Shown here: positions 617 to 23,061 of the stretch, one piece after another
Numbering within the stretch: the stretch's first letter is position 1
How the letters are laid out: every line of letters starts with the position of its first letter
Source of the DNA: Methanobacteriota archaeon
GTDB lineage: Archaea > Thermoplasmatota > Poseidoniia > Poseidoniales > Poseidoniaceae
Assembly (NCBI GenBank): GCA_018650165.1
Contig: JABIGM010000026.1
Coordinates: forward strand, 1 to 23,061
Direction of reading: 5' to 3'
Length of the DNA stretch: 23,061 nucleotides
Notes under the pieces: generated by a model
The model's input: the letters and a program-made list of their open reading frames with translations, nothing else
Databases searched by the model: none
Told to the model about the DNA's origin: nothing
Program-made: the position numbers and the translations under genes

Positions 617-3211
617 ATGACCCCGGTGCTTTCGCATCCACTCCTCGATGATGGGGTCGAAGCTAGGGCTTATCAATTGAAGGCTGCCAAAGAAGCAATT
701 TCGGGTTCAACACTCCTAGTAATGCCGACTGGTCTAGGGAAAACCGCTGTTCAATGGATGGCGATGGCTGAGGCAATAGATGGCCCTGGGAGAATTGTAT
801 TGGTTGCTCCAACAACAGGTCTTGTAGCCCAACAAGCAAAGATGGCTAAAGAATTTTTGAAAATAGATTCTGAAAGAATTGTAACTCTGACCGGCCAAGA
901 TCGGCCAATAAAGAGAGAAGAGATTTGGAAACATGCAAAAATTGTAATGGCTACGCCCCATGTAATTAGAAACGATGCCCGGAATGGAAGAATATTACTT
1001 TCGGAAATTGATTTACTCATTGTGGATGAAGCACACCATGCAACCGGTTCAGATTCAATGGCGCAATTAGGTGACATGTATCTTGAAGCATCTCCAAAAG
1101 CCCTAATCCTAGCAGCTACCGCTTCACCAGGCGTAAAGGCAGCCAAGGTTCTAGAAATTATTCAACGTCTCGGAATAGAGCGATTACATATCACAAAGAG
1201 AGACGACGATTTAGTTCAGCCATACATTACATCGATGGATATCGAAAAACATAATTTGAATCTGCCAGATAAATTATTAGAAATTATTAGACCTCTCAGA
1301 ATCTTAGAAGCTGAAGAAGGTGAACTACTAAAGCGCGGTGGTTTCCTTACCAGCCATGGTAGAATTACGACTGCTGCTATCGAAGAAGCACAACGCAGAG
1401 CAAGTGCGGCAATAGGCAAAGGGGATGCACGCGGTTATGATGCTGCCAAACGAATCGGCGACCTGAGAAGACTACACCGGCTGATCGATTTACTTGACAC
1501 GCAGGGCCTAAGGTGTGCAATAATGTATCTTGAAAGAGCTCGTGGAGATAAGGATCGGAAAACCAAACGGTTCCTCTCATTGCCGCCTGTTGCAAATCTG
1601 CTAAGAGAATCTGCCACCAAACAAGAGTGCCACCCCAAACCAGCACTGGTAGAAGAGTTGGTAAGTAGCGGACTAGAGAACGGAGGCAAGGTCATAATTT
1701 TCACTGAATATAGAGATACTGTGAACAACCTGATGGAGATTCTTGAAAAAATTCCAGGAATAAAACCAGGCCGTTTCGTAGGACAAGCAAGCAAAGGTAG
1801 CCAGTTGGGAATGAAACAAAAGGAGCAGATTGAGCAATTAGAACGTTTCAAAGAAGGTGAAATCAATGTCTTAGTTGCTACAAGCGTTGGCGAGGAAGGA
1901 CTTGATGTCCCTGCGGCCGATAGTGTGATTCTATACGAGCCGGTTCCCAGTGCAATAAGAGCAATTCAAAGGAGAGGTCGTACGGCCAGACAGAAGGATG
2001 GAGAAGTACATATCTTGATTGCGCAAGGTACGCGTGATGAGTATGTTCAACAAGCATCATTACGGCGCGAGGAACTGATGTATAGAACTCTAGACTCATT
2101 ACAAAAGCAATCACGACTACCTCGAAGGGCTGCTCCAAATGAAAATGTATTATCTGCATTTTCAGTTGATGGTGAAAATGCAGAATCTTTCATCGAATCT
2201 GAAGAAAAAAGACTATTTCGCGAAAAGAAAGTTGAACCACAAAAAAACCCAGTCCAGAAGAAATCAACAACCAGCACTTATTCTCCTGCCAACCGCCCAA
2301 GAGCACAAAGATCACTTTCGGAATTTAGTACATCTCCAGTGAAGGCGAAAGATGATGGTAAAAAAAGAGATGAAAAATGGTGGAAACCTGTTCTTGATGG
2401 AACAATTACGCATTCTAGAGATAAAGAGTCATCTACTGCTAGCGCAGCACAAACTGAATCAGATTCAATGAGTGAAGAAAAAGATTCTCAAACTATGATT
2501 GTAATCGACCATCGAGAAGCTAATTCGACTTTACCTGCAATGCTAAAATTACAGGGCCATGAAATCAGTATGCAGCATTTAACCGTCGGTGATATTCGAA
2601 TTTCAGATAGAATCTTAATCGAGAGAAAGAGTGCTAGAGACCTTGTCGACTCCTTAATTGATGGACGGTTGATTCACCAGGCAAGAAGATTGCACAGTGC
2701 TGCACCACGGCCGCTAATCATCATCGAATCAAATGAAACGCAAAGGGTTCATCCAAATGCAATTCATGGTGCAATGGCATGGATAACACTTGATCTGGGT
2801 CTGCCTGTAATAATGACTGGGTCTCCAGAACAAACTGCTCGTTTTGTATCGGTAGCTGCAAAAAGAGAGGCTCGGATTCTAGATTTATTGATGAGTCACC
2901 TTAGAAAGAAGCCTATCGATTCAGAAAAATCGGCAATTACTGCTGCATCTGCTGAAATTATGTCAATAATTAATGGTGAATCAGAGGTTGGGCCGCTCGC
3001 ACAGAAATGGTCAAATGAAGTCGTATCTCAAAGAACAAAAATACTAGCAGAATTACCGGGTATTGGAACGAAAACAGCCACGAAGATAATGAGTGTTGCT
3101 GGAGATATAATGGGGCTTTGTATGATTAGTGAGCATGAACTTACCCAAATAAAAGGTGTCTCGTCAATTCAAGCCAGAGACTTATTCAAATTTTTGCATG
3201 GCAATTCATGA
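617..3211 (+). CDS. hef: Hef / FANCM-like SF2 helicase fused to an ERCC4 (XPF) nuclease with C-terminal HhH motifs
   Basis: Helicase motifs MPTGLGKT, DEAHH, TASPG, VGEEGLD and QRRGRTAR; low-complexity linker; nuclease motifs IVIDHRE, GDI and ERKSARD (ERKx3D); HhH motif LPGIG. Start chosen at ATG 617 (MTPVLSHP); the ORF track opens at 578. Confidence 0.93.
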   Translation: MTPVLSHPLLDDGVEARAYQLKAAKEAISGSTLLVMPTGLGKTAVQWMAMAEAIDGPGRIVLVAPTTGLVAQQAKMAKEFLKIDSERIVTLTGQDRPIKREEIWKHAKIVMATPHVIRNDARNGRILLSEIDLLIVDEAHHATGSDSMAQLGDMYLEASPKALILAATASPGVKAAKVLEIIQRLGIERLHITKRDDDLVQPYITSMDIEKHNLNLPDKLLEIIRPLRILEAEEGELLKRGGFLTSHGRITTAAIEEAQRRASAAIGKGDARGYDAAKRIGDLRRLHRLIDLLDTQGLRCAIMYLERARGDKDRKTKRFLSLPPVANLLRESATKQECHPKPALVEELVSSGLENGGKVIIFTEYRDTVNNLMEILEKIPGIKPGRFVGQASKGSQLGMKQKEQIEQLERFKEGEINVLVATSVGEEGLDVPAADSVILYEPVPSAIRAIQRRGRTARQKDGEVHILIAQGTRDEYVQQASLRREELMYRTLDSLQKQSRLPRRAAPNENVLSAFSVDGENAESFIESEEKRLFREKKVEPQKNPVQKKSTTSTYSPANRPRAQRSLSEFSTSPVKAKDDGKKRDEKWWKPVLDGTITHSRDKESSTASAAQTESDSMSEEKDSQTMIVIDHREANSTLPAMLKLQGHEISMQHLTVGDIRISDRILIERKSARDLVDSLIDGRLIHQARRLHSAAPRPLIIIESNETQRVHPNAIHGAMAWITLDLGLPVIMTGSPEQTARFVSVAAKREARILDLLMSHLRKKPIDSEKSAITAASAEIMSIINGESEVGPLAQKWSNEVVSQRTKILAELPGIGTKTATKIMSVAGDIMGLCMISEHELTQIKGVSSIQARDLFKFLHGNS

Positions 3212-4066
3212 ACCGATGAGGATTGCACGGGTTCTTAATTGTGCAAAACGGTCGGTAAAGTGACCTAAAGCGAAGGCGATAATCTCAGTGAGATTAACTA
3301 CAGGAATACTAGTGTCTTTGTTTGCAACTCTTCCTGCTTTACCCTGATATGAATCAAGATTCGAATGTGATTGTGTACAAGCACTAACCAATACTTGTCC
3401 ACCAGCTTTCTTTGCATCATTTAGTACCCTAGCGGTCATCTTCATGACAGTATCTCCAAGCGAAAGCAGTGACGGATTTCCTACACTACTTGTCTTGGTC
3501 TTGTATTCGACAGGACGACCCCCAAGGGCAGTGATTAGTTGTTCCATGTATGTCGGATTCCAAGCATCGTCACCTCCACATGCACCTTTACGCTGCATAT
3601 GTGGTCCGTAGTAGCAAGCGATATCAAGATCTAGAGGGTTGACTACAGCGGCTTCCACTTTGTCCAACCCAATTTCATCTACAAGTACATGCAACAGATG
3701 GCTAGAAGAAATCTCTGATGCATTTAGTGTAAGTCCCGTGGTTTTTTCCAAAACACGATTTGCACTTGCTAGTGCGATTTCATCATTCTGGAAAGTGTCT
3801 AGAGATTCATGGAGAATACCTTGGGCGGAAGCGCAAGCAGTGATTATATCATGGCCTTTTTTCTCAGCAAGTGCTAGATTACGAGCGTTTAGGGCAAGTT
3901 GTAATTCTCTATTTCCTTGCTTGATTATATTTCCACCATCGCTGTTGTAGCCAACGATTTCAATCAGTTCGATCCCAAGGGTTTTGCAAAGCGGTTGAAT
4001 TGTATCTTCGACCTCTCGTGATGATTGGCGAGCTACATTTCCGGGATAATAAGAATATTTTACCAT
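3206..4066 (-). CDS. HdrB / SdhE-like CCG-domain protein with degenerate cysteine motifs
   Basis: Two CCG-like repeats: YYPGN...YNSDGG...TACASA and YYGP...TSSVG...SACTQSHSNLD, ending IPVVNLTEIIAFALG. The spacing fits the CCG family, but most ligand cysteines are substituted. SD GAGGTGA at 4071-4077. Confidence 0.8.
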   Translation of the reverse strand: MVKYSYYPGNVARQSSREVEDTIQPLCKTLGIELIEIVGYNSDGGNIIKQGNRELQLALNARNLALAEKKGHDIITACASAQGILHESLDTFQNDEIALASANRVLEKTTGLTLNASEISSSHLLHVLVDEIGLDKVEAAVVNPLDLDIACYYGPHMQRKGACGGDDAWNPTYMEQLITALGGRPVEYKTKTSSVGNPSLLSLGDTVMKMTARVLNDAKKAGGQVLVSACTQSHSNLDSYQGKAGRVANKDTSIPVVNLTEIIAFALGHFTDRFAQLRTRAILIGS

Positions 4067-4070
4067 GCTA

Positions 4071-4077
4071 TCACCTC
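4071..4077 (-). promoter_or_regulatory. Shine-Dalgarno site GAGGTGA for the HdrB-like gene, overlapping the upstream stop codon
   Basis: Plus-strand tcacctc at 4071-4077; upstream TGA at 4076-4078; ATG at 4066. This suggests translational coupling. Confidence 0.75.
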
Positions 4078-6046
4078 AGAATCTCCCATCTAATTCATTG
4101 AATATTGCAACAACCTCGTGATGGTTGGCAATTTTGGAGTTGAACATGTTTGGTATTTTTCCAATTCCAGCAGGTGGAACAAGCATTCCTTGGAATCCAC
4201 GCATCATTGGACCACCATTGCGTGTAAATCCTAGCATCATCCTGAGAGATATACCATTCATTATGTTAGAACCAAGCCCCAAAGGACCTAGCACTGAGCG
4301 ATAAAGTGTAGTCTCGTTAACATTACCAGACATCTTTACTGAACGTGCGTATGTTTTGACTAGCCGACCAGTCTTTCCGACAAATTTGTATTCAGCCAAT
4401 AGACGTGCTCTTGCAGCGTATAGTGAATCTGCGGCTTGTGACCCATCGATTCCATGGCGGTGTATCGAGGAAATATCTGCCTCATCCCATACGCCACCTT
4501 TGCCTTGCATCAAGTCAAACATCTGCTTGATGTGCGCCTTTCCTGAACGAGGGTCTTGACTTCTAACCCATCGCTGGAGAGCGAGACCTGGGCCAGAATA
4601 TACTTCATCGACGTCATAGGTATCCGACATAGCATTTACCAGTTGGAGTGAACCTACATCTGCTAAAGTGTGAAGATAAGTAGCTTCAGATGATGACATT
4701 ACACCGATTGGAGAGCCATTAGCCAATCTTTCACCTTGGCGTGGGTCTGCTTCCAACCAAGGTTTAGAATCTGCACGAGCATAGTCATAGCGGTCATATG
4801 AGACCATCAGATCTTTCACTACCTCATATCCTGGGACTGGTTCGAGAGTGAGAGTTTCTCCATCGCTTACTAGATCACAGATTCTGGTAGTATCTGCAGG
4901 TAAAATTCTGCCATTTGCCTTAATTCCTGAAAGTGGGTTTTGGCCTACTAGCCCACCACTACGGAATGTAAGAGAACCATCCACTTCCCGCTTTACGGCG
5001 ACCAGTGCATCCTCAATACTAGCATGACCAGGGAGATTTACTGCCACTGTATCGTATCCAGACTGGGCCAGTATAGGGTCGTATCTGAAAATACGCATTG
5101 TGAGAGATATTGCTGGCTGAATGATATTTGCAGGGGTGAAATCTCCGGCATCTACGCCGTCGTCTTCTTCGCCAGCGCCATAAGCAATCATTGCTTCAAC
5201 TAAATCTTCTTGGAATACTCCACCTGAATCGACACAGGCAATTCTTGGAAGAACTTCGCCAACCCATTGACTCCATGGCTCATCAAAGTCCACATCGCAC
5301 AATTTAATATCCAAAATTGATGTTGCACCGAGAGATGCAAATTTACCATCCCAGTCGGTACCTGCTTTGCAGAACTCATCGTACGATGAATCTCCGATTG
5401 CACAAACAGAGTAGTGTACTCCTGAAAGTCCAGGATTAGAACTGCAAGTTGCATTCCAAAGTTCCTCTGCATTATCTGGCATTTCGCCTTCGCCCCACGT
5501 CGAGGTAATAATCAGAATTCTCTTGTGTGTTGCAAACTTGGTTTGATCATAACCATCCATATCGATAACAGATGCCTCCAAACCATACGCTGCTGCTTTC
5601 TTAGCGGTCTTCTCTGCTAAACCTGCTGCGTTGCCGGTTTGTGAACCAAAGAAAACTGCAAGACTGCGGTCTCCAGAAAGAACTCCGGCAAGAACTCCAG
5701 AATTATCTCCCGTATCAGCGGAAGCCGCTGCTGGAGCAGGAGCGGCATCGACAACAGGTGCAACTTCTTCGCTGACTACCTCTGCGGTGCCACCCTCGTA
5801 TTCGAACTTGATAATCTCGACTGGGCAGGCATCTGCAGCCTCTTCGATTAGTTCTGAGTATTCTGCTCGAAACTGAGTTTTAATTGATGAGAAACCAGTG
5901 TTCCTATCGAAAGCACCGTCTTCGCGAACATCCGACTTTATCTGACTCGTATCATCAGTTACCTCGAAAACCTCGGGCAAAATATCTTCACAAGCATCAC
6001 AGGTGATGCAATCTTCCTCTATCCAGACCTTAGCGACGGTTGGCAT
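4076..6046 (-). CDS. Fusion of a single-cluster ferredoxin, a flavodoxin and a cysteine-less SdhB/FrdB-like domain (656 aa)
   Basis: Start at ATG 6046 (MPTVAKVWIEEDCITCDAC) with SD GGGGTGA at 6051-6057. Ferredoxin: CxxCxxC...ACPVEII. Flavodoxin: FFGSQTGNA, ITSTWGEGEMPDNA, AIGDSSYDEFC. SdhB-like: MRIFRYDP, DAL...DGSLTFRS, LEPVPGYEVVKDLMV, KPWL, YSGPG, DPR. Confidence 0.85.
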   Translation of the reverse strand: MPTVAKVWIEEDCITCDACEDILPEVFEVTDDTSQIKSDVREDGAFDRNTGFSSIKTQFRAEYSELIEEAADACPVEIIKFEYEGGTAEVVSEEVAPVVDAAPAPAAASADTGDNSGVLAGVLSGDRSLAVFFGSQTGNAAGLAEKTAKKAAAYGLEASVIDMDGYDQTKFATHKRILIITSTWGEGEMPDNAEELWNATCSSNPGLSGVHYSVCAIGDSSYDEFCKAGTDWDGKFASLGATSILDIKLCDVDFDEPWSQWVGEVLPRIACVDSGGVFQEDLVEAMIAYGAGEEDDGVDAGDFTPANIIQPAISLTMRIFRYDPILAQSGYDTVAVNLPGHASIEDALVAVKREVDGSLTFRSGGLVGQNPLSGIKANGRILPADTTRICDLVSDGETLTLEPVPGYEVVKDLMVSYDRYDYARADSKPWLEADPRQGERLANGSPIGVMSSSEATYLHTLADVGSLQLVNAMSDTYDVDEVYSGPGLALQRWVRSQDPRSGKAHIKQMFDLMQGKGGVWDEADISSIHRHGIDGSQAADSLYAARARLLAEYKFVGKTGRLVKTYARSVKMSGNVNETTLYRSVLGPLGLGSNIMNGISLRMMLGFTRNGGPMMRGFQGMLVPPAGIGKIPNMFNSKIANHHEVVAIFNELDGRF

Positions 6047-6111
6047 GAGTTCACCCCTGCTCAGATGTGAGCAATACGCTCGACTCGTATGTAGTCTTTG
6101 AAGGTTCCTCG

Positions 6112-6131
6112 CCTCTCCCTTTAGGGAGAGG
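6112..6131. terminator. Perfect inverted repeat downstream of the thermosome gene (possible terminator or processing hairpin)
   Basis: CCTCTCCCT-TT-AGGGAGAGG, 30 nt past the thermosome stop. No clear U-tract follows. Confidence 0.35.
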
Positions 6132-6161
6132 GGCATTATTCATGTTTAGACAGGGTGAACT

Positions 6162-7847: not shown

Positions 7848-10800
7848 TCACTGTTGATTATCAAGCCATTGCTGGCCATAGTGTCCCCATTGTTCCATAG
7901 TCCATCCATCTGGAAGGCCTGCTGCGGGCACAGGAGGACCAGAAACGACTTCAGGTGGAGCAGCGATTTGAGGTGATTCTATGACATCTGGGGCTGGCAT
8001 TTGAACTTCAGGGGCACCTATTGTCGGGGCAGCCGCAACCGCACCATATGTTGCCGTCAAGTTGTCTTCATATCCATCCTCGGCCCAATTCTGTTCCTCT
8101 TCTTCTTCAGTACCATTCAGGACCATTAACAACGCTCCGAGTAGAGCAATGATAAGAGCTGTTCCAACGACCCATGTACTAATCCCAACCCAATCGAAAG
8201 AGTCGCTGTCTGAAGAGGATACTACGTCATTACTATCTGATGTTCGTTTCAGGGTAACTGGGAGTTGTAGGGATGCAGCATCTTCTACTGAATTGGAAAC
8301 TGCCCAAATTGTAACTTCGGTATTAATGAATTCTTCATCTAGGGTCAGTAGGATTGAACTTTGTACTTCGAAGACAATGGTTACTTCCCTTTCCCCCTCC
8401 AATTCTAGCCAGAAATCTCTGTCACTAGATTTGATAGAAGAACTATACCAACGGTTGGTTCCTTGCTGATCCATTGACATAGTCACGGATTGGCCTTCAG
8501 TGTACTGGTTTCTAACACGTACAGTAATTTCATACTCGCCTGCCTCATCAATAATCGTTGATTCTGTGGAAATGATTCTTATCCAATTTTGGGAGCCGAC
8601 TCTGTATGTACATTTTCCGTAACTAGAAACACTATCATCGTTTACACTGGTTGCAATGACTTTGAGAATTAATTGTCCATTAGTTCCATCAGCGAAGGTA
8701 AATGTAACGGTGACATTGTAAGATTCACCCGGCTCTAAGAGCGGAGTGGTTTCGCCTTCAACCAACAGCCCAAAGCTTGCATCCATTCCTTCAGGTATAT
8801 CCATGGACATATTGAAGCGATCCGCTTCATTGCCATTGTTGCGTACTTCAAAGCGCATTGATTGCGCTACATCTCCAGGAATGTAGGATTGGTCTGCATC
8901 TTCATCAGAAACCCAAACCGCTGCAGTATCTGTAACATCGATATTGATGGTTATCTGTTCTTTTGCCATTGGATCGTCAACACTAGTTGCGGTTATTCTA
9001 GCAGTGTAAAGCCCCGGAGCCAATCCAACAGGCATTGGCAGATTTAGGGCGATGCTAGTTTCTCCATCCCATGCATCAAGCATTGGTGTTTCAGCTGCAG
9101 AAAGGTAAGCTTCTAATTTCCAATTAGATTGAACTAATTCAAGCGAATAGACTTCATCATCATTACCAAGATTTAGTAAATCGATGTAAACTACTCTAGA
9201 ATTACCATTTGCTGCTGCTTCGATTTCTAACTCCTCTGCAGTCATTGTGAATTCCCTTAGGACAGGGACATCTATTTTCTTTGAAATAACATCATTTCCA
9301 AACAATGCTTGGCCACATGATGGACAAACTGCACGGAGAGAGAATGGAATTTCACCAGGTGTTGCTGTAGAAGGCGCTGTTACATTCAGTAGCAATTCGA
9401 TTTGTTCACCTCTAGCTAATGGCATTGGCATCTGAACTATACTGTGATTCAAATCGGTAACGAATGAAACCCAATCATCGCCTTGGAAGTTAGATGTAAC
9501 GGTGTAGCCTGCTTCACGGTTACCCGCATTCTGTAACTTGAATGGGATGTCAGTGGAAGAGCCTGGAGCCAAGGAAGCCGCTAGTAGTGGCGCTGTTGAT
9601 GATAAGTGAACGCCATATTGTTCTGTGATAGCAATATCGGCAGAGATTCGGCCCATTTCTCCTAATTGTGTGCCTCCAGCATCTGCCCACCATATTTGCC
9701 AAACTTGTTGCTGTACATCTGCACCAGCAGGTATTGAAAGATTGATCCACATTTCAGAAGTGTTACCCGCAGGAATTGCCGGTAGAATTACGCTGGTACC
9801 ATGTTGCGTTGGGTGCTGGCTATCGATTCTAATCATCGGAAGACTTGGGTTCATCCAAGATGCATTTGATACATTTGATTCGATACGGACCTGTGCAGAC
9901 ATGTATCCGTTGTTCTGTATTGAACAGAACATTGGTACAATTGTATTTGGCGGTGTTGTGTAACCGCCGGAAGGATTGTCGCAAGAAATACTCAGAGTAT
10001 ATTCACTAACCTTCTCGATTCCAAACATTACGAAATCGTCAACATGCATTCCGCTAGATGCTCCCGAACCATCGGACTGGAATAAGATTCCATAAGACCA
10101 TGAATGACCACCTAACTCTTCAGTAGGGTCCCAAGAAATATTACTCCATGCGCCTGCAGTAGTGCCTGGAGCATCTTCAACGAAATTGTGAGAAATTGTA
10201 CTTGCTGGTGCACCGTTACCTCTCCATAACTCTAGTGCTACAAAGTCTCCTGCACCCATTTGACCCCATGTTTGAACGTGCATTTGAGCAGAAACTAATC
10301 CTGCAGAGTTTAGTTGCATTTTACACATCCATTGGATGTATTGTTGCGATAATCCCCCATCGAGAGAGGCGCCATTTCCACAGTTACTATCTGCGCCACG
10401 GAAAGCGAAGACTAAACGGCTACGTGATGCTGAAGGATAATCTGAACCTGAGTTCGCATGCCTCCAATTTGCAGTCCCGACCGCGGAAGCGGAATTATCT
10501 GCTTGCCAAATCCCGATTCCATTAGCATCGCTACCATCAAGTGGGTATTCTCCACCATAGAATGTTGGAATCGAAGCGGTTGGTAGTGCTTGGTCACGAG
10601 GATCACCTTCTGCATCCATCTTATCTTGCGACAAGGCTACTGGAAGAGTGTACTCTAAGATATCATTATCGTTTCTATCGTCTGCGGAATTGTAAACTGA
10701 TGCACGAATTATTACTCCGCCCGATAGTTCGTTGGTTGCAACATCTAGGTAAGAGTGAGCCACAAAGGCTTCCCAGTTGAATGTGTCAGTGTAGGACTGC

Positions 10801-11153
10801 CCACCCAGCATAGGGACGGTTTGCCATGAAGTTGAATTCATCACAAAGCCAATCGGATGAACCATTTCAACTGTAACTTTGGCAGTTGAACCTTGTAGAG
10901 CATTTCCTCCTCGCTTTACTTCAACCGAAATATCAACCATGTCGCCTTTAGCGATGTAAACAACTACGCTTCCGTCTGGCTGGATCCAATGATTTGCTTC
11001 TGATGAATTGACTTCTATTTCTGACACCGAGAAATCATCAGATGAACCACCGCGACCCGAGGTTGCCTCCGCATTATCCACAGTTAAACTAAGAATAGAT
11101 TGCATTAGAAGAATGGTCACCAATAGGAATGGTATCGACTTGCGCATATTCAT
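7848..11153 (-). CDS. Large secreted, C-terminally membrane-anchored surface protein with repeated Ig-like (CARDB/NEW3-type) modules
   Basis: N-terminal signal peptide (MRKSIPFLLVTILLMQSILSL). Repeated N-x-GN-x2-D/A-x-Y/F motifs (LQNAGNREAGY, LNLGNDDEVY, VRNNGNEADRF). Many N-x-S/T sequons. TM helix near the C-terminus, then an acidic/Pro-rich tail. Domain names are inferred from motif resemblance. Start could be 11153 or 11147. Confidence 0.75.
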   Translation of the reverse strand: MNMRKSIPFLLVTILLMQSILSLTVDNAEATSGRGGSSDDFSVSEIEVNSSEANHWIQPDGSVVVYIAKGDMVDISVEVKRGGNALQGSTAKVTVEMVHPIGFVMNSTSWQTVPMLGGQSYTDTFNWEAFVAHSYLDVATNELSGGVIIRASVYNSADDRNDNDILEYTLPVALSQDKMDAEGDPRDQALPTASIPTFYGGEYPLDGSDANGIGIWQADNSASAVGTANWRHANSGSDYPSASRSRLVFAFRGADSNCGNGASLDGGLSQQYIQWMCKMQLNSAGLVSAQMHVQTWGQMGAGDFVALELWRGNGAPASTISHNFVEDAPGTTAGAWSNISWDPTEELGGHSWSYGILFQSDGSGASSGMHVDDFVMFGIEKVSEYTLSISCDNPSGGYTTPPNTIVPMFCSIQNNGYMSAQVRIESNVSNASWMNPSLPMIRIDSQHPTQHGTSVILPAIPAGNTSEMWINLSIPAGADVQQQVWQIWWADAGGTQLGEMGRISADIAITEQYGVHLSSTAPLLAASLAPGSSTDIPFKLQNAGNREAGYTVTSNFQGDDWVSFVTDLNHSIVQMPMPLARGEQIELLLNVTAPSTATPGEIPFSLRAVCPSCGQALFGNDVISKKIDVPVLREFTMTAEELEIEAAANGNSRVVYIDLLNLGNDDEVYSLELVQSNWKLEAYLSAAETPMLDAWDGETSIALNLPMPVGLAPGLYTARITATSVDDPMAKEQITINIDVTDTAAVWVSDEDADQSYIPGDVAQSMRFEVRNNGNEADRFNMSMDIPEGMDASFGLLVEGETTPLLEPGESYNVTVTFTFADGTNGQLILKVIATSVNDDSVSSYGKCTYRVGSQNWIRIISTESTIIDEAGEYEITVRVRNQYTEGQSVTMSMDQQGTNRWYSSSIKSSDRDFWLELEGEREVTIVFEVQSSILLTLDEEFINTEVTIWAVSNSVEDAASLQLPVTLKRTSDSNDVVSSSDSDSFDWVGISTWVVGTALIIALLGALLMVLNGTEEEEEQNWAEDGYEDNLTATYGAVAAAPTIGAPEVQMPAPDVIESPQIAAPPEVVSGPPVPAAGLPDGWTMEQWGHYGQQWLDNQQ

Positions 11154-11311
11154 CAACACCTATGCGACATTGATTCCGCATATGAATGTCCCCGTCCCAT
11201 GTCCCCGTAGGGGACAGGGGGTAATGGCTGAATCTAAGCACTGTTTTAATCGCCTTGAAGGGGTGGTAATGAAGCGCAACCTTTGACATAGTGAAGGGGC
11301 GGGATACTGCT

Positions 11312-14343: not shown

Positions 14344-16506
14344 TCAAGATGAGGTGCTTTCAGGCACATCATCTACCAGTGTAGCCTCTAAAGGCTCATC
14401 GTCAACCGGTGGTGGTAAACTTTCAACATCACTTGCTATAACAGATAATTCAAGAGGGTCGTCAGTCTTTTGCTGTACAACAACCCAAGCCCCAAATACG
14501 AGGATCGATAAGGCAAATATTGCAATAAAAATAATTCTGCCAAGCGATTCAGCACTTGCATAGGTTTCGACGTTTCCTCCACCGATTACTGAATCCCATG
14601 AGATCATTGAGGAAGCGCCGGTTTCGTCCACACCTCTGACAATTACCATATTGTATCCTTCTGGAAGTATGTCAGTATCTACTGTAAATTGGAATTGGAA
14701 TGATTCGTAGGTACTCATCGAACCATTCACCGATTCATACATTACTTCAGTCCAAGTATCTCCTCCATCGACAGAATATTCGATTTTATCCATTACTGCA
14801 CCTCGGCTCCATGCTTGCCCAGTGTATGTATTCACTGTACCCTCTGAAGAGATGTTTTCAATATGTACTTGAAGATCAAGATTCATTGTTGAAGTATTGA
14901 TTCCAGTATCATTTAGATAACGTGCAGTCCAAACAGCATCATGTGCATCGACTAGACCCCATCCATAATCCACATTCCAATGAGGGTCATGTTCTGGCTG
15001 AGAGGCAGGACCCATTCTAGTTGCTGTTGAGCGAAGAATTTCCCTTATTGTAAGCGGGCCAATTTCGTCATTCACTTCCATCATCAATGCGATAACACCA
15101 CTGACAGCAGGAGTTGCATAAGAGGTACCTGAACCACGGCCTGTGTAGCCATTTTCTGATGCATCACCATTAACGGAATTGATACAGGAACCTGTAGTTA
15201 CACATGCCTCTGCCTGAATTATATTCGAACCAGGTGCAGTAACATCTGGTTTCATTTCATTGATTGGGTTTGAGTCACCATTGTCCCTGCGTGGGCCACG
15301 ACTTGAATAGCCTGCAATAGTATCATCATCTCTGTTAACGGTGTTCATATCATCGGTTGCGCCAACTGTGATTGAGAGTGATGAAGAGCCCATACCAGAC
15401 AATCCATCGTTGCTTGGCCCGTCGTTTCCTGCTGCCACGCTTACGGTTACACCTGCTTCAGTTGCGACGTTAAGAATACGAGAATGCATATCTTCGCCAT
15501 CACTTCCACCGCCTTCGTGGCTTGTAATTCCCCAAGATAGCGAGATAATGTCAATTCCGTAGAACCTTTCATCCACTCCTTCCCATTCAGTATCTTTGTT
15601 ATCTATAATCCATTCAATACCGTTAACTGCAGATTCATAGATACTTTGCTCAAGAGCATAATTTTCAAAGGGACCTGCGCCAGCATCAGTGCCAATTCTA
15701 ACATCGATTAAACTTGCATTTGGAGCGCTGCCCTCAAATCCAGTTTGTTCTCCGCTTGCATCAAGTCCAGTTGCACTGGCCATTCCCATACAGGCTGTTC
15801 CGTGTTGATTTCCGTCATCTGGATCAAAGGAACCATCTGTTTCCCTATTTCCTAAATTAGAATTGGCAATACAAGTCAATAGCCCTGTATGAAGATAACA
15901 CACAGCATCATATCCTGCTACGAATTTACTCTCAAGTACCGGATGTGAGTTTAGTCCAGGGTGCTCGTTATCGACACCTGTGTCGACCATTGCGATATTG
16001 ATTCCAAGCCCACCCATTGGTGAGTGGTTCCATGCAGCGTGAGGATAATCCTCTGATGGTTCGGACTTAATATTTGGAGTTTGAATATCTCCCCAAAAAA
16101 CCACTTTACCATATCTTTCAACCATCACAACTCCATCGAGTTCTGATAGGGTCCAAACATCTGAAGAATCGATTACCCCGAGTAGTATAGCATCAACTGA
16201 TTCGATGACATCTGTTATTTCATAGCCCATTGATTCGAGTAATGCAACATCTGAATCAGTTACATCACGACCATAAGAAAGGCCGACGCCAACGGGACCT
16301 TCTAGGGTTTCAAGAGAGTCAAAGATTCCATTTCTATTGGAATCCATTGTTGTTCTTTCCCACCAATCTATATCCTCATGAATTACAGGAGTCATTTCAG
16401 GTATTACTGAGGACCACTGAGAATCCGTGTGGACAGGATTACCAAGTGAACCGGTAAGAGGTGCCATAAATAGAACCAAACAAAGGAGTGTGAAACCGCG
16501 ACGCAT
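14344..16506 (-). CDS. Subtilisin-like S8 serine protease, secreted and C-terminally membrane-anchored
   Basis: Catalytic Asp (MVDTG), His (QHGTACMG), Ser (GSGTSYATP) and oxyanion Asn (AAGN). Signal peptide and propeptide region; C-terminal TM. Start chosen at ATG 16506 (MRRGFTLL). Confidence 0.92.
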   Translation of the reverse strand: MRRGFTLLCLVLFMAPLTGSLGNPVHTDSQWSSVIPEMTPVIHEDIDWWERTTMDSNRNGIFDSLETLEGPVGVGLSYGRDVTDSDVALLESMGYEITDVIESVDAILLGVIDSSDVWTLSELDGVVMVERYGKVVFWGDIQTPNIKSEPSEDYPHAAWNHSPMGGLGINIAMVDTGVDNEHPGLNSHPVLESKFVAGYDAVCYLHTGLLTCIANSNLGNRETDGSFDPDDGNQHGTACMGMASATGLDASGEQTGFEGSAPNASLIDVRIGTDAGAGPFENYALEQSIYESAVNGIEWIIDNKDTEWEGVDERFYGIDIISLSWGITSHEGGGSDGEDMHSRILNVATEAGVTVSVAAGNDGPSNDGLSGMGSSSLSITVGATDDMNTVNRDDDTIAGYSSRGPRRDNGDSNPINEMKPDVTAPGSNIIQAEACVTTGSCINSVNGDASENGYTGRGSGTSYATPAVSGVIALMMEVNDEIGPLTIREILRSTATRMGPASQPEHDPHWNVDYGWGLVDAHDAVWTARYLNDTGINTSTMNLDLQVHIENISSEGTVNTYTGQAWSRGAVMDKIEYSVDGGDTWTEVMYESVNGSMSTYESFQFQFTVDTDILPEGYNMVIVRGVDETGASSMISWDSVIGGGNVETYASAESLGRIIFIAIFALSILVFGAWVVVQQKTDDPLELSVIASDVESLPPPVDDEPLEATLVDDVPESTSS

Positions 16507-16585
16507 ATACTTCCCCAATCTAATTCGAGTGTGCATCAACCATCAATATGTTGGTTAGTCGATTAGATGAATTGATAGTCAAATG

Positions 16586-18736: not shown

Positions 18737-19846
18737 TTATCTTAGTGAGACAAACTCGGCTTTGGAGATGGCATCCAAGGATGTAATTTCTTCGCTTATA
18801 TTTTGAAATTTAGAGTCATCTAATTCAGATGCTACGCGCAATACAACTTCCACTCCAGAGTGCAGGATGTGTAGAGTAACTGCAAGTAAATCACTGGATT
18901 CATGATGTGATGACCAAATTTGCTTAATCTTTTGTTCTAAATGTGAACAGTTAGGAAGTTGGGGGGATTCAAGTTCATCATCTTCGGGGTCGATATGAAC
19001 TGTTAACTCTTTCAAAGCAGGAACAACATTCTCTACTCGCTCTACAATTCTATGAGCTATTTCATGTCCCTGTGTTACCGAAAGGTATGGATTGACTTGA
19101 GCATGGGATTCGGCATATATCTCTCCACCGATTGTTTTGGTTCTAAGTAAATGCATATCAACAACACCTCCTGTTTCACGAATCGTCTTCACCATGAGAG
19201 CATATGTATCTGAGTCTACACCAGCCTCACTAATCTCCAAGAGAGCCTCATAGACAATTTTCAGTCCAACTCTCGTAAGCATAAATGATACGACAAGAGC
19301 GGCCGCTAAATCCCCTACTGTAAATCCAAATTCTGATGCGATTAAACCTGTAAATACAACGAGCGATGAAAGAGCGTCTGTTCTGTGGTGAGCTGCATTT
19401 GCTTGCAATAGTGTATGATTGTGCTTAGCTCCTGCTCGATGGGTATAGTGATAGAGAATCTCCTTTATGATGATTGAAGCGGCTGCTGCTGCTAGCGCCA
19501 TATGACCTGGACTGGTCCACGAAGAATTATCTTGGATTCTATTGATCATCTCATATCCAAGGCCAAGGCCTGCGACTATTACCAATAATCCAACCATCAG
19601 AGATGCTAATGTTTCGTATCGACGATGGCCATACTGGTGATTATCATCTGCTTCCTGTGAACCGAATAAAATCGCTATGTAAACAACTACATCAGAGGCG
19701 AGGTCGCTTATCGAGTGTATTGCATCGGCAATCAGTGCTACACTGGCTGTAAGATAACCTACAACCCCTTTCAGACCAGCAAGAAAAACGTTGACGATGG
19801 CTCCAACCACTGTCACTCGCTTTGCAACACTATCGCGCTCGGTCAT
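18737..19846 (-). CDS. Cation diffusion facilitator (CDF) family metal transporter
   Basis: Motifs SVALIADAIHSISDLASD (HxxxD), HQYGHRRYETLASL and NAAHHRTDALSS (HxxxD); cytoplasmic domain with GHEIA and LTVHIDP; additional C-terminal domain. Confidence 0.93.
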   Translation of the reverse strand: MTERDSVAKRVTVVGAIVNVFLAGLKGVVGYLTASVALIADAIHSISDLASDVVVYIAILFGSQEADDNHQYGHRRYETLASLMVGLLVIVAGLGLGYEMINRIQDNSSWTSPGHMALAAAAASIIIKEILYHYTHRAGAKHNHTLLQANAAHHRTDALSSLVVFTGLIASEFGFTVGDLAAALVVSFMLTRVGLKIVYEALLEISEAGVDSDTYALMVKTIRETGGVVDMHLLRTKTIGGEIYAESHAQVNPYLSVTQGHEIAHRIVERVENVVPALKELTVHIDPEDDELESPQLPNCSHLEQKIKQIWSSHHESSDLLAVTLHILHSGVEVVLRVASELDDSKFQNISEEITSLDAISKAEFVSLR

Positions 19847-19990
19847 GATTGTCGCTCATTGTCATTGATAATGAACCTGTACCAATTTGATAAAATCAAT
19901 TTGAATAACAACAAAACACTTCACATTAGATACAAAATTCCATTTGTTAGAACAAAGGATAAAACTACACCCATTCAGGAATTGGTAAAG

Positions 19991-22507
19991 GTGTTAGTGT
20001 TGCTGAGCAATCGTAAGTTTCGACAGGCAATCCTTGCTTTCGTGCTAATTGCTTTGCCATCGCTATTTGTAACTGGCTCATACATAATTTCAGATTCTCC
20101 TGCTCCAAAAGAAGGAATGGAAGAAAATCCTTACCCTGAGGACCCATTAAGTGAAGGTTTGCTCTTTGTGGTAATAGATGGCGGGCGCAGGGATATGATG
20201 AGTAATCCGGAGTTTATGCCACATCTAAATTCACGTGTCGAAGAGGGGGCGTACCTGGAAATTCAAACAAATCCAATGACAATGACTGCGATTTGCGTAA
20301 AGGAATTAGCAACTGGCGTACCGTCAAGACCGAATGAAGCTTTGCAGAACTTCCATCCGACTCATCCTGGAACTCCTGATGGATGGAATTTAGCGAGCAC
20401 GCATGATGCAGATGGCGATGGCGAATATGACCACCAAGTCGGAATCCTTGGCGATTATGTTTGGAAGGACCTGTATCCCAATAGAGAACTAATTCCATTC
20501 TCCCAACACCGCTACGGCCACGCAGATTTCTATCAAGGTGATGAAGAAGCTTTTGTTACTTTGAATTCATGGCTTGGTGGAACTGTTCCTTATGGTGCTG
20601 AAAAAGCACCGAACATCATTATCGCACATATTTCTGGCCTAGATAGTGTGGGCCACCGATCTGAGGCCAAGGATTCACCAGAATATGAAGAAAAACTACG
20701 TTGGTTAGACGACAATTTAGAGATCGCATTTCAGTTAGTTCCTGATAACTGGACTGTTGTTGTAACTTCTGACCATGGTTTGACCGATACTGGACAGCAT
20801 GGTTCTCCAGAAGAGGTTGTCCGAGAGACTGCAGCATTCATGTGGGGTCCAAATATCGCACACGGAGTAACAGTAGAAGGAGTTGCACAAAGAGACCTTG
20901 CAACACTACCTTCAATACTATTCTCGCTTCCATTCCCGCACGCGATTCATGGAAGAATCCCCTTAGAGGCTTTCAGCCTTAGTGAAGAACAGCATACTGC
21001 ATACGAGCAATGGAATTGGGATGCTGCAGTCGAAAGAAATGATTGGATGGAAGAAGAAGGCCATTCGCACATTGATGGATTGAGTAAAGATAAAATCGAA
21101 TGGGACGAGTTACAGGGTGATGAAATCGGAATGAGGAATCTCGATTTAATCATCACTGTACTGGCAGTTTTATTATTCAGCGTAGTGCTTTATAGAATTA
21201 TTAACCCTACTGCAATACAATCGAAAACAGCATACAAAGCGATAGGTTTGTTTACAGTATTATTTGCATTATCTGCATTTATCTCCTACAGCAGAGATTG
21301 GCTAGCTATAATCTATTATCCGCTAGGTCTATTCGGATTATTGACCGTATTCGCTATGAATGAAAAGTCATTGAAGAAAAAAGGAGATGACGAGGTTGAT
21401 TTACGTAATTTGTGGATTATTCTAGCTGCATTTATTTTTGCAGTGATTTATCCCGAAACCCGATTTACGATTATCATGGCGCCAATTTTGGCATCTCTTT
21501 TGTTGCGTAAACAGACCTATCGTGATTTCCTTGGAGGCCCCGATTCAACTTCAAAAGTTCTCCTATATCCATTGATGCTAATTCTAATAACCGCTATTTT
21601 ATTTTCGGATTACAGAGTTTATGGCCTAGCAGTGCCTCGATTCATGGTAATGTTTACCCAATCATATGAAACTGATGCCTTGATTTGGTCTGTTGTAATT
21701 GCATTTGTTTTTACTCTAATTTATGCTACAAGGAATCGCGATTTACCATTAGTCGTAGCTATTGCAACCGCCGCTACAATGGCAACAATACCTGTAATGA
21801 TTAGCCAGAATTCTGATTATGTAGATTGGATCTTAATCTATGGATTATTATCGGGACTAGCAATTTCGATTTGTCTGAAAATTATTGGAAACAAACATTC
21901 GTTTACTGTATTCCAGTACTGTGCTTTTGCTTGGGCTACAATGAGTTGGGGTGCATGGGGCGGCGGTGTTTCGATGATATTCTTTGGTTGTGTAGAATCT
22001 CTAATGAATAAGGAATGGAGTTTCCTTAAGGATAAAAATGATAATCTGCAAGCAGAAATCGTTCGCCATATGATGTTAGGACTAATTCCAATCGGCATTT
22101 GGTTTGCATGGTGGGCATCTCTTGGCCAAACAGATGGCATTCTACACCCTCGAGACATAGACCCCGGCAATCTTTTCTTGAAAGGAGGATACATCGGAGA
22201 CCGACTCTCCCCTAGCAATACTTGGGTTGGATTCATGGGTGCAGGTCCCGTGGTACTAGTCGGCATTCTTTGGTGGAATCTCTTCCGCAAGGTCGGATGG
22301 CCATTACAGATGGCATTTGCAATTCTTATTGTGAGAATTTCTGCACTTGCAATGCAGTTATCGGTATCTCCAAATCTTCCACGTTTAGTCTTCAAAATCT
22401 CTTGGGACATGATATTTTGTCTGATGATTGTGACAGTTGTAGGATTGTATATACTTCATGAAAAGTGGTTGAACCGAGATTTCAATACAGAAACTAGTGA
22501 AGTGTGA
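19991..22507 (+). CDS. Alkaline-phosphatase-superfamily membrane phosphotransferase resembling GPI ethanolamine-phosphate transferases (PIG-O/PIG-G/PIG-N type)
   Basis: N-terminal TM. Catalytic domain motifs FVVIDGGRRD, PMTMTAICVKELATG, LGDYVWKDLYP, HISGLDSVGH, TSDHGLTDTGQHG and QRDL. More than 10 C-terminal TM segments. Start uncertain among GTG/TTG codons at 19982-20000. Confidence 0.75.
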   Translation: MLVLLSNRKFRQAILAFVLIALPSLFVTGSYIISDSPAPKEGMEENPYPEDPLSEGLLFVVIDGGRRDMMSNPEFMPHLNSRVEEGAYLEIQTNPMTMTAICVKELATGVPSRPNEALQNFHPTHPGTPDGWNLASTHDADGDGEYDHQVGILGDYVWKDLYPNRELIPFSQHRYGHADFYQGDEEAFVTLNSWLGGTVPYGAEKAPNIIIAHISGLDSVGHRSEAKDSPEYEEKLRWLDDNLEIAFQLVPDNWTVVVTSDHGLTDTGQHGSPEEVVRETAAFMWGPNIAHGVTVEGVAQRDLATLPSILFSLPFPHAIHGRIPLEAFSLSEEQHTAYEQWNWDAAVERNDWMEEEGHSHIDGLSKDKIEWDELQGDEIGMRNLDLIITVLAVLLFSVVLYRIINPTAIQSKTAYKAIGLFTVLFALSAFISYSRDWLAIIYYPLGLFGLLTVFAMNEKSLKKKGDDEVDLRNLWIILAAFIFAVIYPETRFTIIMAPILASLLLRKQTYRDFLGGPDSTSKVLLYPLMLILITAILFSDYRVYGLAVPRFMVMFTQSYETDALIWSVVIAFVFTLIYATRNRDLPLVVAIATAATMATIPVMISQNSDYVDWILIYGLLSGLAISICLKIIGNKHSFTVFQYCAFAWATMSWGAWGGGVSMIFFGCVESLMNKEWSFLKDKNDNLQAEIVRHMMLGLIPIGIWFAWWASLGQTDGILHPRDIDPGNLFLKGGYIGDRLSPSNTWVGFMGAGPVVLVGILWWNLFRKVGWPLQMAFAILIVRISALAMQLSVSPNLPRLVFKISWDMIFCLMIVTVVGLYILHEKWLNRDFNTETSEV

Positions 22508-22512
22508 ATTGG

Positions 22513-22749
22513 ATGACTGAATCACGACTTCAACGATTACTTTCTAGTAATGTCTTCAAGTCATTCCTTCTATTCGCTATTTTCCGAGCATTCTACGGAG
22601 CAGGAATACTCATTGTAACATGGTTCTTAGCAACAGAATCAGAAGGCCCTTGGTGGCTTTCTATCATATTCCTAGCGTGTTCAATGGTTTTCTCAAGGAT
22701 TCTATTCAAGTGGATAAAGAAAGGCGGTACTGCTGGAAATACCGTGTAA
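22513..22749 (+). CDS. Small two-TM hypothetical membrane protein
   Basis: ATG 5 nt after the upstream stop (alternative GTG 22504 overlaps it); two hydrophobic helices; probable operon partner of the phosphotransferase. Confidence 0.65.
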   Translation: MTESRLQRLLSSNVFKSFLLFAIFRAFYGAGILIVTWFLATESEGPWWLSIIFLACSMVFSRILFKWIKKGGTAGNTV

Positions 22750-22817
22750 TGAAGTGAATCCATACTTATCACAATTGTAGCGCTAACATCTATCTATTGC
22801 TAAAACCTCGCAATAGC

Positions 22818-23061
22818 ATGGCGAATCCTTCTAAAGTGTGGGTTGTGATATTTTTATCTGTTCTTATGATAGGAATGACTCAAAATTCATACGTGAATAA
22901 TGATGAACAATTTGTCAATGAAATTTCGGATTCTAATAATATCAGTTCTAACTCATCACCACTCAATCTTAGTACAGGATTTAATCCAAAAACGTTCGTA
23001 GATGATGCAAAATTCTTTGACAGCGTCAGGGCGGAATCTGTATCAGTTGGGTTCTATAATT
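22818..23061 (+). CDS. Secreted hypothetical protein, 5' part; runs off the window end
   Basis: Open frame from ATG 22818 to the window end: MANPSKVWVVIFLSVLMIGMTQNSYVNNDEQFVNEISDSNNISSNSSPLNLSTGFNPKTF... Signal-peptide-like start and N-glycosylation sequons. Confidence 0.7.
   Translation, partial: MANPSKVWVVIFLSVLMIGMTQNSYVNNDEQFVNEISDSNNISSNSSPLNLSTGFNPKTFVDDAKFFDSVRAESVSVGFYN

Follow-up and report, generated by a model that had tools for sequence, protein, structure and literature searches.

The 838-residue protein P0001 is encoded by the open reading frame (ORF) at 19991–22507 on the forward strand of contig JABIGM010000026.1 (assembly GCA_018650165.1); the window referred to here is the whole 23,061-nucleotide stretch of that contig that was analysed. 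P0001 is most likely, to judge from its sequence, an integral-membrane, zinc-type phosphotransferase of the alkaline-phosphatase (AP) superfamily, with zinc as the predicted metal. Its catalytic half is, by profile comparison, a real relative of the glycosylphosphatidylinositol (GPI) ethanolamine-phosphate transferases (GPI-EPTs), of the GPI-EPT2/3 type, and not merely a generic nucleotide pyrophosphatase/phosphodiesterase (NPP). On balance, the protein would seem to act as an outward-facing, lipid-dependent phospho-headgroup transferase onto a surface glycoconjugate, outside any GPI pathway, and it is not an orthologue acting in GPI-anchor synthesis. To our knowledge, GPI-EPTs have been treated as eukaryote-specific. 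The literature searched contained nothing on the P0001 family in Marine Group II (MGII) archaea and, apart from the general claim that GPI synthesis originated in Asgard archaea, nothing on archaeal GPI-EPT homologues. Full-length homologs of P0001, with 46–98% identity, occur in Poseidoniales metagenomes, and the named ones belong to Poseidoniaceae and Poseidoniales, which assigns the window to an MGII archaeon.

The gene and the parts of its product lie in the window as follows.

19991–22507, forward strand: gene of the AP-fold, multi-transmembrane (multi-TM) membrane enzyme P0001, with a GTG start and a TGA stop at 22505–22507.
20012–20089, forward strand: N-terminal TM helix or signal anchor, residues 8–33, following the basic stretch R8-K9-x-R11 (from hydropathy and the AlphaFold2 helix 8–33).
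20132–20983, forward strand: predicted extracytoplasmic AP-superfamily catalytic domain, residues 48–331, of NPP/GPI-EPT type.
20279–20281, forward strand: codon of the invariant T97, the predicted catalytic nucleophile, which aligns with the first of the two Thr residues in PT.T of PIG-O/G.
20627–20656, forward strand: metal-binding motif H213-x4-D218-x3-H222 (HISGLDSVGH), its three residues invariant, aligned with PIG-O/G HfLGVDHaGH.
20771–20800, forward strand: metal-binding motif D261-H262-G...G-x-H270 (DHGLTDTGQH), its residues invariant.
21137–22501, forward strand: C-terminal bundle of about 14 helices, residues 383–837 (from hydropathy, the family alignment and AlphaFold2).
22121–22216, forward strand: loop 711–742, where the family alignment shows the highest conservation in the membrane half, with the consensus GQxDGxxHPRDxDPGNxFLxGGYIGDRxSPS.

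An earlier note on this DNA had described P0001 as carrying the motif series and layout of the eukaryotic PIG transferases, and all of the motifs that it listed are present in the 838-residue product. VVIDGGRRD holds D63, NPMTMTAICVKELATG holds T97, and TSDHGLTDTGQHG holds D261, H262, and H270; the series also includes GDYVWKDLYP, HISGLDSVGH (H213, D218, and H222), and QRDL. Residues D63, T97, N120, H213, D218, H222, D261, H262, and H270 are invariant in a family alignment of 32 sequences with identities down to 22%, so that the catalytic residues are intact, and T97 falls within the segment that contains the nucleophile region in ENPP7. The only Pfam match of P0001 is PF01663 (E 3e-12), and the protein has the AP alpha/beta fold, the Thr nucleophile, and the Asp/His two-metal site that define the NPP/Phosphodiest branch of PF01663. 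It is scarcely credible that P0001 is a non-catalytic AP-fold membrane protein serving as a regulator or lipid-binding protein like YejM/PbgA, as neither the nucleophile nor any metal ligand varies within the family, and the domain order of YejM is opposite to that of P0001.

The kinship with GPI-EPTs was examined with a set of PIG-O/Gpi13- and PIG-G/Gpi7-type ORFs. A search of metagenome DNA with the pattern H-x-L-G-x-D-H-x-G-H-x-x-G-P returned 120 loci, 31 of which carry ORFs of 700–1065 residues. The DHGMxxxGxHG motif is present in all 31 of these ORFs, with a DHG...HG spacing of 11 residues identical to that of P0001, and GDDTW is present in 29/31; the IDALR-type motif (D-A-[L/F]-R-x-D) is found in all 21 ORFs that reach the N-terminal part. 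Alignment of the P0001 family profile with 16 PIG-O/G-type ORFs by hhalign covers residues 48–313 over 263 columns (probability 99.6%, E 1.4e-23, 24% identity), and pairs the P0001 motifs with PIG IDALRxD, PPTxTxxRLKGLTTG, GDDTW, HxLGVDHxGH, GDHGMxxxGxHGG, and QIDL, in agreement with the motif-by-motif pairing with PIG-O/PIG-G proposed earlier. The hidden Markov model (HMM) of the family matches the PIG-O/G-type ORFs with 35–84 bits (E down to 5.9e-23, 120–300 columns); at equal Z, the highest-scoring solved chain, ENPP7, reaches 48 bits over 72 columns. By HMM and by hhalign, the catalytic domain is specifically GPI-EPT-like and not generically NPP-like. H213 is common to the PIG-O/G-type ORFs and the related bacterial family described below, and is replaced by Tyr in ENPP7. 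The neighbours of P0001 in the ESM Atlas are prokaryotic clusters, followed by GPI-EPT3, 2, and 1 (0.92–0.93), and not ENPPs. It is because of this GPI-EPT-specific kinship that the transfer of a head group from a lipid is the best functional guess, and to that extent the head-group transfer reading of the earlier note stands, without the GPI-type pathway and the PIG-F-like partner that it had attached to it.

Several searches found no PIG sequences. The protein search with P0001 reached Poseidoniales only, with no eukaryotic PIG sequences; a profile of distant matches retrieved only Myxococcota-type proteins; the motif-rich region of P0191, used as a query, matched P0191 itself and nothing else; and sequence and fold searches returned no GPI-EPT entry from the Protein Data Bank. 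In addition, none of the 32 family members matches PF19316 (PIGO_PIGG) or PF04987 (PigN) at E values up to 10, and a six-frame search of the genome to which the window belongs, hereafter its own genome, yielded no match to either. In a Pfam scan of 10 PIG-type ORFs, PF19316 was found in four, with Gpi7/PIG-G-type ORFs at E 1.7e-139 and 2.9e-147, while the other six, of Gpi13/PIG-O type, match PF01663 alone; the lack of a PF19316 match is no criterion for exclusion, because these six genuine PIG-O/Gpi13-type ORFs lack it as well. An uninterrupted PIG-O/Gpi13-type ORF of 1059 residues (L029:2271–5447, forward strand), on a contig of 74% G+C, likewise has all of the GPI-EPT motifs and matches PF01663 only.

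The resemblance to PIG-O/Gpi13 and PIG-G/Gpi7 (PF01663 plus PF19316) extends to the overall architecture, as these proteins, like P0001, consist of an N-terminal TM helix, a lumenal or extracytoplasmic AP domain, and a C-terminal multi-TM region, and their motifs (the D of IDALR, PT.T, GD..W, H-x4-D-x3-H, and DHG-x5-G-x-HG) are collinear with those of P0001. P0001 differs in having GDYVW in place of GDDTW and LDSVGH in place of VDHxGH, without the GP that follows GH, and it is shorter (838 residues against about 900–1065). The NPPs of PF01663 (Xanthomonas NPP; ENPP4, 6, and 7) are, in contrast, soluble or single-pass hydrolases without a multi-TM domain, and their last metal-binding His lies about 100 residues past DHG (in the alignment to GSHG near residue 360), whereas it lies 8 residues past DHG in P0001 and the PIG-O/G-type ORFs. 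EptA/MCR-1 and LtaS (PF00884) have the opposite order, five N-terminal TM helices followed by the catalytic domain, which P0001 does not share; they belong to the sulfatase-type branch and match P0001 more weakly in structure than the NPPs do. PIG-N, PIG-O, and PIG-G have been suggested to be zinc enzymes (PMC9168625), and zinc is likewise predicted for P0001.

Outside Poseidoniales, the closest family consists of 'alkaline phosphatase family' membrane proteins of about 800–950 residues from Myxococcota (Polyangiaceae/Myxococcales), with the same layout as P0001. An exhaustive representative search found 978 proteins at E ≤ 0.001, and the best 150 of these, which were listed, are all prokaryotic-looking; among the matches listed, those beyond Poseidoniales are metagenomic proteins of 800–1000 residues with the same layout and PF01663 only, the named ones being from Polyangiaceae and Myxococcales. 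The MGII and Myxococcota families align by hhalign over residues 11–327 (E 1.8e-61, 26% identity), and the membrane half remains for the most part unaligned; the Myxococcota family carries the motifs HFVxPDHQGH and DHGA, resides in GC-rich bacterial genomes, and is uncharacterised. In a tree of the AP domain, the MGII sequences group together (support 99), as do the PIG sequences (100), and the MGII clade stands beside the bacterial sequences and not the PIG clade, with a long-branch warning attached to this placement. The gene was found in 41 of a sample of 151 Poseidoniales genomes, some of which have two copies: 36/74 in its own family, 4/74 in the other large family, 17/58 among high-quality genomes, and 6/10 in its own genus. 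The rest of the phylum gave short, generic AP-core matches only, with no full-length homolog. The gene is thus an accessory, stand-alone gene of some Poseidoniales; the P0001 family is probably related by horizontal transfer to the large Myxococcota family of the same layout, the simplest account being an exchange of genes with bacteria by horizontal transfer. The earlier suggestion of a particular bearing on how the GPI machinery arose is not borne out, given an accessory gene whose closest outside relatives are from Myxococcota.

The domain order of P0001 is that of PIG-N/O/G, as seen both in hydropathy, which indicates one N-terminal and 12–14 C-terminal TM segments, and in an AlphaFold2 model built from the 32-sequence alignment (pLDDT 86.8, pTM 0.81), which consists of a helix at 8–33, an alpha/beta domain that ends near residue 331, a linker helix at 332–355, and about 14 helices at 383–837. 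By the positive-inside rule, the N-terminus would be inside and the catalytic domain outside. The C-terminal bundle has conserved polar residues (R491, R542, D612, W653-G654-x-W656, Q713, and R738), and G732 and G733 in loop 711–742 are invariant, as are P741 and W745; invariant polar residues in the membrane half are as expected of a domain that handles substrate, and would fit such a domain better than a plain anchor. Folded separately, the membrane domain gives a confident model (pLDDT 85.3, pTM 0.86) for which no solved fold was matched (best Foldseek E 0.08, TM-score 0.12), a result that does not imply a novel fold. When residues 381–838 are compared in the ESM Atlas, GPI-EPT membrane regions rank first, with weak scores of 0.76–0.80.

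A weak connection between the membrane halves can be traced in two steps. Loop 711–742 together with the three helices that follow aligns weakly with the RxGxQGGLDFxxIDxxAGxFGDP region of the Myxococcota proteins (score 30.7, P 0.0013, 112 columns), its reversed controls giving P 0.5–0.6, and a second alignment joins this Myxococcota region to the FFxTGHQ...QW..AF stretch of PIG-O/G (score 33.2, P 0.0011). Taken together, the reversed-sequence controls reach scores of 10–13.5 (P 0.43–0.9). The hhalign probabilities of these C-terminal loop links are only 12–21%, and full-profile hhalign aligns the N-terminal TM helix and the AP domain only. The transitive C-terminal link from MGII through Myxococcota to PIG is suggestive and no more, and it is rather doubtful that the MGII and large Myxococcota families are prokaryotic homologues of the whole GPI-EPT, membrane half included, with the C-terminal loop and three helices as their signature.

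In the proposed mechanism, the C-terminal multi-helix domain would bring its donor, a phospholipid of the membrane and most likely one with an ethanolamine head group, to the two-metal site. T97 would then attack the phosphodiester, releasing the lipid core and leaving a covalent phospho-headgroup-Thr intermediate, from which the phospho-headgroup would pass to a hydroxyl of a surface acceptor, which could be a glycolipid or a glycan of the envelope or of a glycoprotein. Lipid head-group transfer through an intermediate of this kind is the chemistry of PIG-N/O/G, EptA, and LtaS. Genes for a phosphatidylserine decarboxylase (E 1.9e-38) and for a CDP-alcohol phosphatidyltransferase are present in the genome, which makes a phosphoethanolamine donor lipid plausible. 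A single relative, with 47% identity and on a 1.2-Mb contig, has a gene for a CDP-alcohol phosphatidyltransferase (L006:6563–7435, reverse strand) that is convergent with the enzyme gene and abuts it, which places a head-group lipid synthase beside the putative head-group transferase in this one case.

Transfer, donor, acceptor, and outward orientation are all deduced, and a number of observations weigh against this reading. No conserved neighbours hint at an acceptor pathway, the flanks varying between genera; direct profile comparison with the PIG-O/G membrane regions is not significant (P 0.26 for the whole domain and 0.15 for the tails), and no solved transferase membrane domain resembles that of P0001. 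Simple alternation of 15 helices would place loops 674–685 and 711–742 on inconsistent sides of the membrane. The patchy presence of the gene, also within its own genus, fits a dispensable, niche-dependent role, which could also be phosphorus scavenging. Sequence cannot separate transfer from hydrolysis, and the members of the family are known from their genes alone. P0001 could therefore be a membrane-anchored hydrolase that passes the intermediate to water, either an outward-facing phosphodiesterase or, in the manner of ENPP7 and ENPP6, an enzyme resembling phospholipase C/D. It would cleave phospho-headgroups from membrane compounds or from dissolved organic phosphorus compounds, for phosphorus scavenging or lipid remodelling. 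The complete NPP-type two-metal site suits such an enzyme, as does an accessory, patchy gene in a surface-ocean heterotroph, like many nutrient-acquisition genes, with no acceptor-pathway genes linked to it. NPP-type hydrolases, however, are soluble or single-pass, and a conserved 14-helix domain of about 450 residues with invariant polar residues is of the kind found in the lipid-dependent transferases of this superfamily, PIG-N/O/G, EptA, and LtaS; the catalytic domain is also nearer to GPI-EPT-type proteins than to ENPPs. A hydrolase is, on this evidence, possible and yet unlikely, and lipid-dependent head-group transfer is the preferred reading.

No GPI pathway was found in the own genome (1.75 Mb, 66 contigs, 80% complete), which gave no match to PIGO_PIGG (PF19316), PIG-F (PF06699), PIG-M (PF05007), PIG-V (PF04188), GT22 (PF03901), PIGA (PF08288), PIG-L (PF02585), the C13 transamidase (PF01650), or inositol-1-phosphate synthase (PF01658); control genomes did yield matches when searched for PIG-L and inositol-phosphate synthase. 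A GPI-type pathway is thus not supported, and no PIG-F, which PIG-O and PIG-G require, was found for P0001. It is very improbable that P0001 is a true PIG-N/O/G orthologue serving a GPI-like anchor pathway of archaea, in which the small protein encoded downstream would be a PIG-F-like subunit. Its architecture and motif series do agree with this, GPI-EPT membrane regions are, with weak scores, the closest named clusters in the ESM Atlas when the membrane half is taken by itself, and a small TM gene lies 5 nt downstream. Against it, in addition to the missing pathway, most Poseidoniales lack the gene, an accessory status that differs from that of PIG-O/G as universal pathway enzymes, and the tree of the AP domain sets the MGII clade apart from PIG.

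The downstream gene argues in the same direction. It and the intergenic region upstream of the enzyme gene are placed as follows.

22513–22749, forward strand: gene of a small, conserved two-TM protein (P0002), 78 residues from ATG 22513 or 81 residues from GTG 22504.
19847–19990, forward strand: AT-rich stretch between the enzyme gene and the divergent CDF gene, the presumed promoter/5' region (from sequence).

A start at GTG 22504 would overlap the last codon and the TGA stop of the enzyme gene by 4 nt. P0002 has two TM segments by hydropathy, matches no Pfam family, and gives no PF06699 (PIG-F) signal. It is 90% identical in the closest relatives, whose enzyme is 72% identical, and it occurs in 86 of the 151 Poseidoniales genomes, in both large families, with 45–79% identity. 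Both genes are present in 30 of these genomes, the enzyme alone in 11, and P0002 alone in 56, and P0002 adjoins the enzyme gene in this genus only, lying elsewhere in the genome in other genera. The small coupled gene of the earlier note is thus real and conserved, while its pairing with the enzyme is limited to the genus; P0002 is a neighbour and not a dedicated partner, and its casting as a PIG-F-like subunit falls with the 56 genomes that have it without the enzyme and the 11 that have the enzyme without it.

The start of the enzyme gene at GTG 19991 agrees with the N-termini of homologs of 826–840 residues. The reading frame is open from 19715 on the forward strand, and one database entry (P0003) has its start called 40 codons further upstream, an extension found in no other homolog. 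The gene is present as a single copy in its own genome. In this archaeon, a scan for sigma-70 promoters and terminators was uninformative. The divergent CDF zinc transporter gene, an SprT-like gene, the small gene, and a giant downstream ORF are conserved as neighbours within the genus only. Vertebrate ZNT5-6 and ZNT7 are thought to supply PIGN, PIGO, and PIGG with zinc (PMC9168625), and the CDF-family zinc/cation efflux gene (18737–19846, reverse strand) is adjacent to the P0001 gene in L002, L003, L009, and L010; this adjacency is probably coincidental, because it is restricted to the genus.

Other genes of the window include those for a Hef-type helicase-nuclease and a thermosome. The giant downstream ORF (22797–23060, forward strand), of which the window contains only the beginning before it runs off the end, encodes a very large protein, secreted or surface-located, whose N-terminus is signal-like; its homolog in L002 and L003 exceeds 1400–1798 residues and has no Pfam record. 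On the reverse strand, 7848–11159 encodes a 1103-residue protein with only a weak CARDB match, and 14344–16539 encodes a 731-residue S8 subtilase; the two products are probably secreted or located at the surface, and are of a sort typical of MGII proteolytic heterotrophy. Also on the reverse strand, 4076–6136 encodes a 686-residue fusion of 4Fe-4S ferredoxin, flavodoxin, and 2Fe-2S domains, an unusual electron-transfer module, and is adjoined by a gene for a protein with a CCG cysteine-rich domain (3206–4066).

P0001 is not to be taken as a sign of an archaeal GPI pathway, being the product of an accessory, stand-alone gene nearest to bacterial genes. It points instead to an envelope modification in a very abundant group of surface-ocean archaea. 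Compact prokaryotic proteins that share this layout, and whose catalytic domain is demonstrably homologous, could offer tractable models of how GPI-EPTs work. If the prokaryotic families do prove to be homologues over their whole length, the type of enzyme used on GPI anchors would predate that use as a stand-alone prokaryotic phosphoethanolamine transferase acting on surface glycoconjugates. If P0001 is such a transferase, the MGII cells that carry the gene would display a zwitterionic surface modification so far undescribed in Archaea.

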